Assembly (NCBI GenBank): GCA_947626095.1
Contig: CANQQV010000009.1
Span: 1-64,000 of the forward strand
DNA from: an uncultured Bacilli bacterium
Lineage (GTDB): Bacteria; Bacillota_I; Bacilli_A; RF39; UBA660
Reading direction: 5' to 3'
Length of the DNA: 64,000 nucleotides
Shown: positions 12,771-12,953 of the stretch, piece after piece
Layout of the letters: every line of letters begins with the position of its first letter
Numbering within the stretch: the stretch's first letter is position 1
The notes under the pieces: model-generated
What the model was told of the DNA's origin: nothing
The model's database searches: none
The model's input: the letters and a program-made list of their open reading frames with translations, nothing else
Position numbers and translations under genes: made by a program

Positions 12771-12815
12771 AAATTATTTATGTTAATAGTATTAATTAAA
12801 AAGAAAACCACCTAA
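12771..12815 (+). pseudogene. 3' remnant of type I toxin peptide gene
   Basis: Reads KLFMLIVLIKKKTT*; same position relative to the sRNA terminator as the toxin C-terminus (..IVMIVVIKK*) at 36930. Confidence 0.5.
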
Positions 12816-12908
12816 CTCAACAATGATTTAGGTGGTACCCATTTTATGGCAACACTCAACACTGCATTATTGAATGTTCCTTTTTTAGTTTACGCAAGTT
12901 CCCTTGCT
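12798..12908 (-). ncRNA. putative type I antitoxin-like sRNA (orphan copy 1)
   Basis: Promoter TTGTTA-17-(TG)TATGAT at 12915-12943; 5' GCAAG-GGAA-CTTGC hairpin; terminator ACCACCTAA/TTAGGTGGT+U; homologous to 36921-37037 and 38288-38375. Confidence 0.7.
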
Positions 12909-12953
12909 ATATTCATCATATCATAAAAGAGATTTTTTAACAAGTTATACAGA

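Follow-up and report, generated by a model that had tools for sequence, protein, structure and literature searches.

An orphan antitoxin-like RNA beside an Ec107-like retron belongs to a multi-copy family of type I toxin–antitoxin-like modules in uncultured Bacilli

In the genome of an uncultured Bacilli bacterium (assembly GCA_947626095.1, contig CANQQV010000009.1), a retron reverse transcriptase (RT) gene is followed by what looks like the antisense half of a toxin–antitoxin pair of type I, with very little of a toxin on the opposite strand. Is this element an RNA gene, to which kind of system does it belong, and why is it kept without its toxin next to a retron? A preliminary description of the 64,000-nt stretch analyzed here (positions 1 to 64,000 of the contig, called the window) proposed an orphan antitoxin attached to the retron 3' end and belonging to a second specificity class, with a target that is lost or lies elsewhere. 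The features discussed below are collected in Table 1.

Table 1. Features of the orphan RNA locus, its paralogs, and neighboring genes (positions in the window).
Feature	Position	Strand	Remarks
Copy A, antitoxin-like small RNA, about 115 nt	12796..12911	-	fold z -5.53; model R1 108.6 bits (copy A belongs to the R1 training set)
SigmaA-type promoter of copy A	12915..12943	-	-35 12943-12938, extended -10 12920-12915
Hairpin 1, GNRA (GGAA) tetraloop	12894..12907	-	sequence-conserved, no two-sided changes
Hairpin 2 ("core")	12848..12880	-	8/12 pairs with two-sided changes
Hairpin 3 and U-tract, predicted intrinsic terminator of copy A	12796..12836	-	9/11 pairs with two-sided changes
Toxin remnant, last four codons (IVLI) and lost stop position	12786..12800	+	from alignment with the dead toxin of G010 and the intact toxin of L122
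387-aa gene, function unassigned	11589..12752	-	occupies the place of the toxin gene and the RT's own terminator
Ec107-like retron RT, 318 aa	12954..13910	-	PADLOC RT_Ec107-like E 1.2e-126; Pfam RVT_1
ncRNA of the retron itself, bounded by a1/a2 inverted repeats and located upstream of RT	13925..14090	-	fold; motifs recur
Intact paralogous module B	36778..37075		30-aa peptide 36838-36930 (+), antisense RNA 37040-36918 (-)
Truncated paralog C	38287..38390	-	hairpins 2 and 3; without promoter, without toxin

The element, named here copy A, is a real small-RNA gene. Its promoter, 10 nt past the RT stop (12954), contains a -35 hexamer TTGTTA, a 17-nt spacer, and a TG-extended -10 hexamer TATGAT, and is predicted to start transcription near 12908-12911. 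This match alone is not significant, because promoter-like sequences are no commoner than chance in such AT-rich DNA (15 found vs. 13.2 expected in 1.7 kb). Both hexamers are unchanged in the orthologue from the related genome G010, in which five spacer positions differ, and since the promoter is intact, copy A is probably still transcribed. The downstream 121 nt fold into three hairpins with -39.6 kcal/mol (z -5.53), and 0 of 200 shuffled sequences fold as well. Hairpin 1 lies outside the toxin-mRNA overlap in intact copies. The RNA would terminate at hairpin 3 and its U-tract; going downstream from the RT in this genome, no terminator-like hairpin comes earlier. A terminator scan missed this hairpin and found a single site, elsewhere. 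The promoter scan and the folding thus agree with the layout given in the preliminary description, i.e., promoter, GNRA hairpin, core, and terminator-like hairpin, beginning about 10 nt after the RT stop. The likeness to the antisense RNA of the 36.9-kb locus was also confirmed, as 36918-37040 folds likewise (z -4.93).

The genome contains six copies of this RNA. Three of them, A, B, and C, lie in the window; the others are on contigs C14, C1, and C20. Copies B, C14, C1, and C20 each oppose a 25-30 aa hydrophobic open reading frame (ORF) with a strong Shine–Dalgarno sequence (SD), and copy C lies just downstream of a tRNA-Leu gene (38404-38490). Copy A matches copy C at 85% over 89 nt and copy B at 79% over 95 nt, the latter match excluding the terminator, which agrees with the earlier remark that the core is closer to the 38.3-kb copy than to the intact locus; the match to the C14 module is 82% over 146 nt. 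With a three-hairpin structure entered manually after copy A's own fold, which favors this structure in the slide control, 17 of 27 pairs change on both sides across 28 aligned copies and 0 of 500 shuffles reach the score, as expected if the stem changes are compensatory, as had been proposed. All two-sided changes are in hairpins 2 and 3 and none in the GNRA hairpin. The structure was supplied because RNAalifold, run on the plain alignment, recovered hairpin 2 alone.

The covariance model matched 15 of the 26 other genomes of the genus, whereas for the remaining families of the class the count was 0 of 137 genomes. From the model matches, 99 distinct copies were retrieved as loci, a subset biased by score, in which 57 oppose an intact peptide ORF with SD, 32 oppose none, six oppose an ORF without detectable SD (three of them with short flanks), and four lie at contig ends. 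The homologues do, therefore, lie opposite small hydrophobic ORFs (57/99), and this supports the assignment of copy A as an antitoxin-like RNA of a type I-like family. Because 32 of the 99 copies have no opposing peptide, orphans are common; in the genus set of 58 copies, 30 are intact, 24 oppose no peptide, and four an ORF without SD. The reverse situation was not clearly found. All four peptide ORFs of this genome oppose an RNA, and among 42 peptide-profile matches in 27 genus genomes, 35 adjoin an RNA match, one has a divergent two-hairpin partner, one is unrelated, and five are cut by a contig end and are undecidable, so that no clear lone toxin remains in this set. At one locus (L077), the intact toxin opposes an RNA with a degraded 5' end. 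Two unusual loci were also seen: a compact module at L190 1030-1190 (G026:C26), with a 22-aa peptide and a shorter two-hairpin antisense region, which barely scores with the model, and one at L192 880-967 (G022:C32), at a contig end, where the toxin ORF is broken after 11 codons by a likely insertion sequence end.

How an intact module might work is suggested by predicted structures. The convergent mRNA would encode a membrane peptide of 24-35 aa with a basic N-terminus. In the modelled toxin mRNAs, the SD is buried in 48 of 56 and the 5' end pairs with the 3' end (last 45 nt) in 52 of 56 (raw counts from predicted folds); the mRNA would hide its ribosome-binding site in a stem-loop and be closed by its own ends. 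On the + strand of intact copies, hairpin 2 would, in these models, terminate the toxin mRNA and also pair with its 5' end. The antisense RNA, with its end taken from the profile, reaches the end of the ORF in 49 of 57 intact copies. Its overlap with the mRNA would span the final 95-100 nt of the latter, giving RNase III, which is encoded in the genome, a long duplex to act on. The computed complementarity of cognate RNA–mRNA pairs extends over 95-101 nt with a net energy of -85 to -93 kcal/mol, and for non-cognate pairs the computed energy is mostly near 0 kcal/mol. By analogy with known systems, the peptide would be toxic and the duplex would be cleaved by RNase III.

The useful result of this analysis is the family: a type I-like module without an Rfam or Pfam entry. 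Among 119 sampled genomes of the host family, whose members have small genomes, 75 were matched, with about 420 model matches in all and up to 18 copies in one genome. No Rfam family was found at gathering score in the window, nor at E ≤ 1 in eight loci; 0 of 51 peptides reached the Pfam cut-off, the best match among NCBIfam toxin families was HokA (E 0.31, for one of six peptides), and the peptides had no match in the PDB. A PyrR binding site (RF00515) was considered and rejected, with 29.7 bits vs. a gathering score of 54 (E 0.12) and a match driven by the terminator hairpin. In the literature, nothing was found on this RNA or peptide family, nothing joining RF39, toxin–antitoxin, and Bacilli, and nothing joining retron, Ec107, and type I toxin–antitoxin; subscription papers were mostly beyond reach, and the tables of Fozo 2010 could hold kin. 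The family represents undescribed multi-copy type I toxin–antitoxin-like modules restricted to one uncultured Bacilli family.

Among known systems, the closest in arrangement are TxpA/RatA, BsrG/SR4, and BsrE/SR5 of Bacillus subtilis and SprG/SprF of Staphylococcus aureus, which are described as convergent genes with overlapping 3' ends (PMC8594479, PMC8167048), as found here. A small hydrophobic peptide, several insulated copies per genome, and the availability of RNase III are further shared with them (PMC6393307), as is the reach of the antisense RNA to the ORF end. However, neither the RNA nor the peptide shows sequence homology to TxpA/RatA, BsrG/SR4, or SprG/SprF (Rfam, Pfam), and, unlike in those systems, the peptides are shorter, carry a basic N-terminus, and occur in one uncultured Bacilli family. 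The Fst/RNAII (par) system resembles the modules in its RNA I, with the SD in a 5'-SL and the 5' end in a long-range 5'-UH (PMC7472228), as in the folds obtained here, but par shares one bidirectional terminator, whereas in the modules each of the two RNAs would end at a separate predicted hairpin followed by a U-tract on the respective strand, and the overlap measures 95-100 nt. The peptides also lack the PXXXG motif and the conserved Trp that precedes a charged C-terminus in Fst (4/57 contain P and 3/57 W). As to direct repeats through which the antitoxin of Fst pairs near the translation start, 9-13 nt of the RNA can pair within the 5'-most 45 nt of the cognate mRNA, and this pairing is not cognate-specific. 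In AapA/IsoA of Helicobacter pylori, the full-length mRNA is closed by a 5'–3' long-distance interaction, as here (PMC8167048). The antisense RNA of that system, however, is contained entirely in the mRNA (PMC8594479), whereas here it overlaps the mRNA 3' end and its 5' hairpin is left outside the overlap. The Zor/Orz arrangement is 5' and non-overlapping, in contrast to the 3' overlap of the modules, and the orz-only loci of E. coli (OrzPmg) are highly similar to each other, whereas the orphans described here arose many times with different lesions. Judged by its layout, copy A would work like RatA, SR4, and SprF, but by sequence it is not a member of those families or of Fst/par.

The history of the locus can be approached by comparing relatives. 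In G005, where the RT is 96% identical, the RT stop is directly followed by a terminator-like hairpin and the RNA is absent. The element separates the RT stop from this hairpin in G010, and in the genome studied here, the hairpin is missing. Comparison of the three genomes shows that one module inserted between the RT stop and the RT terminator and that the toxin then died separately in two lineages. In G010, the promoter, SD, and start of the toxin are gone, but the body still encodes the same 22 residues as an intact allele found in a different genus, with 5 of 69 nt changed, so the loss there is recent. In this genome, the toxin was lost by replacement with the 387-aa gene, and four of its codons survive (IVLI, 12786-12797, + strand), which substantiates the proposed loss of the toxin. 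The toxin C-terminus was originally given as LFMLIVLIKKKTT*; its IVLI part is clearly toxin-derived, but KKKTT is read-through past a lost stop, because the G010 orthologue and intact relatives end with IVLI and a stop that is lost here. The 387-aa gene contains a central hydrophobic stretch. It is absent at this site in G005, G010, and G014 and was not found in metagenome contigs; two relatives are known, with 79-84% identity, and matches in a sequence atlas were all under 0.9. A search of metagenome contigs with an exact 33-nt pattern gave no further orthologues of the copy A locus. After the replacement, the terminator of copy A would also end the retron transcript.

The remaining question is why the RNA persists. 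The reading that we consider probable, though far from assured, is that copy A is an antitoxin left after the toxin-first decay of a lineage-specific type I module. It is proposed that a module can decay without harm only if the toxin goes first and that the antitoxin stays for this reason; such an orphan would need no dedicated target. The orphans retain from 0 to 193 nt of the toxin side, and so arose many times by independent lesions. Weakening on the RNA side is seen as well, as a promoter score of at least 9 was found in 23 of 32 orphans vs. 56 of 57 intact copies (P 0.0003). Comparable asymmetry is reported in Photorhabdus type II systems, with 185 toxin-only vs. 8 antitoxin-only losses (PMC13617665), and for orz, where antitoxin-only but no toxin-only strains exist (PMC11264685).

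Against simple decay stands the conservation of copy A, which differs from the G010 orthologue at 5 of 116 nt, none of them in stems. This is lower than the divergence of RT four-fold sites between the two genomes (14/75; P 5e-6) and of pooled intergenic DNA (0.111; P 0.009), although 2 of 17 intergenic regions are as low. Since the divergence falls below both references, selection acted on copy A; this pair, however, would not date the end of that selection, as a module alive until recently would be expected to look alike. That orphans can stay conserved follows from copy C, which shares its lesions with G005 and differs from it at 4 of 94 nt vs. 10 of 41 four-fold sites. Copy C is probably conserved as the terminator of tRNA-Leu, and it could be a processed sRNA from the tRNA transcript. 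What is retained in copy C (38287-38390, and L022 2004-2109) is exactly the two overlap hairpins.

Persistence by decay has to be weighed against a role in trans, in which copy A would back up the repression of the C14 toxin or act in anti-addiction, neutralizing incoming modules of the same class so that they can be lost. A target elsewhere, one of the possibilities named at the outset, exists on paper, because the toxin mRNA of the intact C14 module is the sole predicted target of copy A, at a net -26.3 kcal/mol and with an unbroken helix of 20 bp, against -1 to -3 kcal/mol for the other three toxin mRNAs of the genome and far from the energies of cognate pairs. The intact promoter and stems and the strong conservation against G010 would fit such a role, and E. 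coli offers a known case of an orz-only antitoxin that is expressed (PMC11264685). However, the C14 toxin has its own antitoxin (-85.4 kcal/mol), and as the assembly (91% complete) is 7.9% contaminated, C14 may not come from the same cell. The G010 orthologue has no predicted target among four complete intact toxins (best -5.7 kcal/mol), and two further toxins at contig ends belong to other classes. Predicted targets in the same genome (≤ -20 kcal/mol) were found for 8 of 22 orphans vs. 3 of 23 intact antitoxins (P 0.09), a comparison in which kin are not independent and local duplication would give the same trend; the other 14 orphans have no target at this threshold. Moreover, in S. aureus, non-cognate SprF antitoxins bound in vitro yet did not neutralize toxicity (PMC6393307). 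On balance, a trans-acting or anti-addiction role of copy A seems unlikely. The proposed second specificity class survives in part: copy A is indeed apart from the 36.9-kb locus (net -2.5 kcal/mol) and shares a class with C14, but the peptide family comprises several classes. Non-toxin mRNA targets were rejected, as no site beats shuffled controls; the best non-paralog site (-46.6 kcal/mol) was reached by 2 of 19 RNA shuffles.

The same idea can be extended to the whole set of orphans. They might form a selected chromosomal RNA-immunity bank, in which antitoxin genes of several classes would gather at insertion sites, those next to tRNA genes among them; this seems quite unlikely, and no less so the further propositions that the banked antitoxins would neutralize resident or incoming toxins of the same class in trans, copy A doing so for the C14 class, and that copy A would ride on the retron transcript. 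Searches for carriers of the modules gave no match in phage or plasmid records, and three patterns run against viral contigs gave 0, 1, and 0 matches, the lone match being unscored by the model.

Improbable, too, is that copy A was kept for its parts in cis, with its terminator replacing the lost RT terminator and its promoter, through leaky termination, driving the 387-aa gene. Indeed, this genome has lost the hairpin found behind the RT stop in G005 and behind the element in G010, the 387-aa gene has an SD and starts 44 nt from the U-tract of copy A, and the two hairpins of copy C, behind a tRNA, are conserved in G005. But in G010, the RT terminator is present and the 387-aa gene is not, yet the RNA is equally intact, and hairpins 1 and 2 are as conserved as the terminator. 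Any cis role for the 387-aa gene would be recent, because this gene was found in 0 of 300 family genomes.

A more general objection would be that the modules are not toxin–antitoxin systems. The peptide would then be a membrane microprotein with a harmless regulatory role, kept in check by the antisense RNA, and the orphan a relic of this arrangement. The lack of convincing Pfam and NCBIfam matches would allow it, and peptide toxicity is proposed by analogy with known systems. Nevertheless, this explanation is very improbable given that the peptide almost never occurs without the RNA while the RNA often occurs without the peptide, that the mRNA models have a buried SD and a 5'–3' closure, that the spread is patchy, multi-copy, and tRNA-adjacent (39 of 99 copies have a tRNA no more than 250 nt upstream), and that co-resident copies are mutually insulated.

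The notion that copy A is a functional part of an effector-less Ec107-like retron, as a second ncRNA, in effector control, or as an RT-made retrocopy, is hardly credible: it starts 10 nt past the RT stop in both this genome and G010, and RTs of this group have no constant downstream gene, but of 27 further RT loci examined, 3 with <30 nt of downstream sequence were dropped and just 1 of the remaining 24, all with ≥150 nt downstream, carries such an RNA, the close relative G005 (RT 96% identical) has none, an RT is found within the retrieved flanks at just two loci among those holding the 99 copies, and the ncRNA role is already filled upstream. The functional tie to the retron implied by the preliminary description was thus not upheld; in a 94%-identical relative, the RT occurs without the RNA. 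Because other RT loci rarely carry the RNA and the retron has its own ncRNA upstream, the attachment is regarded as an insertion accident, and the link of copy A to the retron is incidental. The locus shares the neighboring RT and upstream ncRNA with Ec107-like retrons, whereas copy A, downstream and with its own promoter, is rare in them. Two specific candidates were rejected: an RT-made retrocopy, as a retrocopy of either RNA would lack the promoter and the toxin-side DNA present in the insert, and an msr–msd identity, as copy A is downstream of the RT and occurs in 1 of 24 other RT loci, while the msr–msd role is filled by 13925-14090.

Preferring toxin-first decay, we note that the modules fall in several pairing classes and that about a third of the copies lost the toxin independently. 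The orphans form a series, provided by nature, in which functions of solo type I antitoxins in their own right could be looked for, as has been asked about orz in E. coli (PMC11264685).

Several observations concern the surroundings of the modules. The a1/a2 repeats and internal motifs of the retron ncRNA are conserved in some two dozen related RT loci; this ncRNA has no Rfam match, and the related RT loci have no constant effector gene. The four-fold divergence of the retron RT from G010 is 0.187, and because this is far below the genome-wide value of 0.434 (5th percentile 0.337), the retron region (12954-14090) may have been recently exchanged. In loci L130, L137, L124, and L136, modules occur in tandem, 400-500 nt apart and often behind tRNA genes; Thr, Arg, and Leu are the commonest tRNA genes ahead of modules. 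A 41-nt direct repeat (35665-35705 and 36620-36660) flanks a 234-aa gene (35741-36445), a short hairpin motif is found at 36.66 kb (36660-36685), 3' of tRNA-Leu (38375-38395), and 3' of a tRNA on contig C1, and in G005, the toxin of module B is deleted at a junction with the 41-nt repeat. The repeat and the hairpin motif are possible recombination or attachment sites. A kinase-like gene (10606-11504, - strand) is split here into 219 aa and an 80-aa piece, is frameshifted and also split in G010, and measures 299 aa in G005 and G014. The window further contains two T-box leaders (3335-3533 and 32925-33156, - strand) and the 5' part of a 16S rRNA gene (1-586, - strand).
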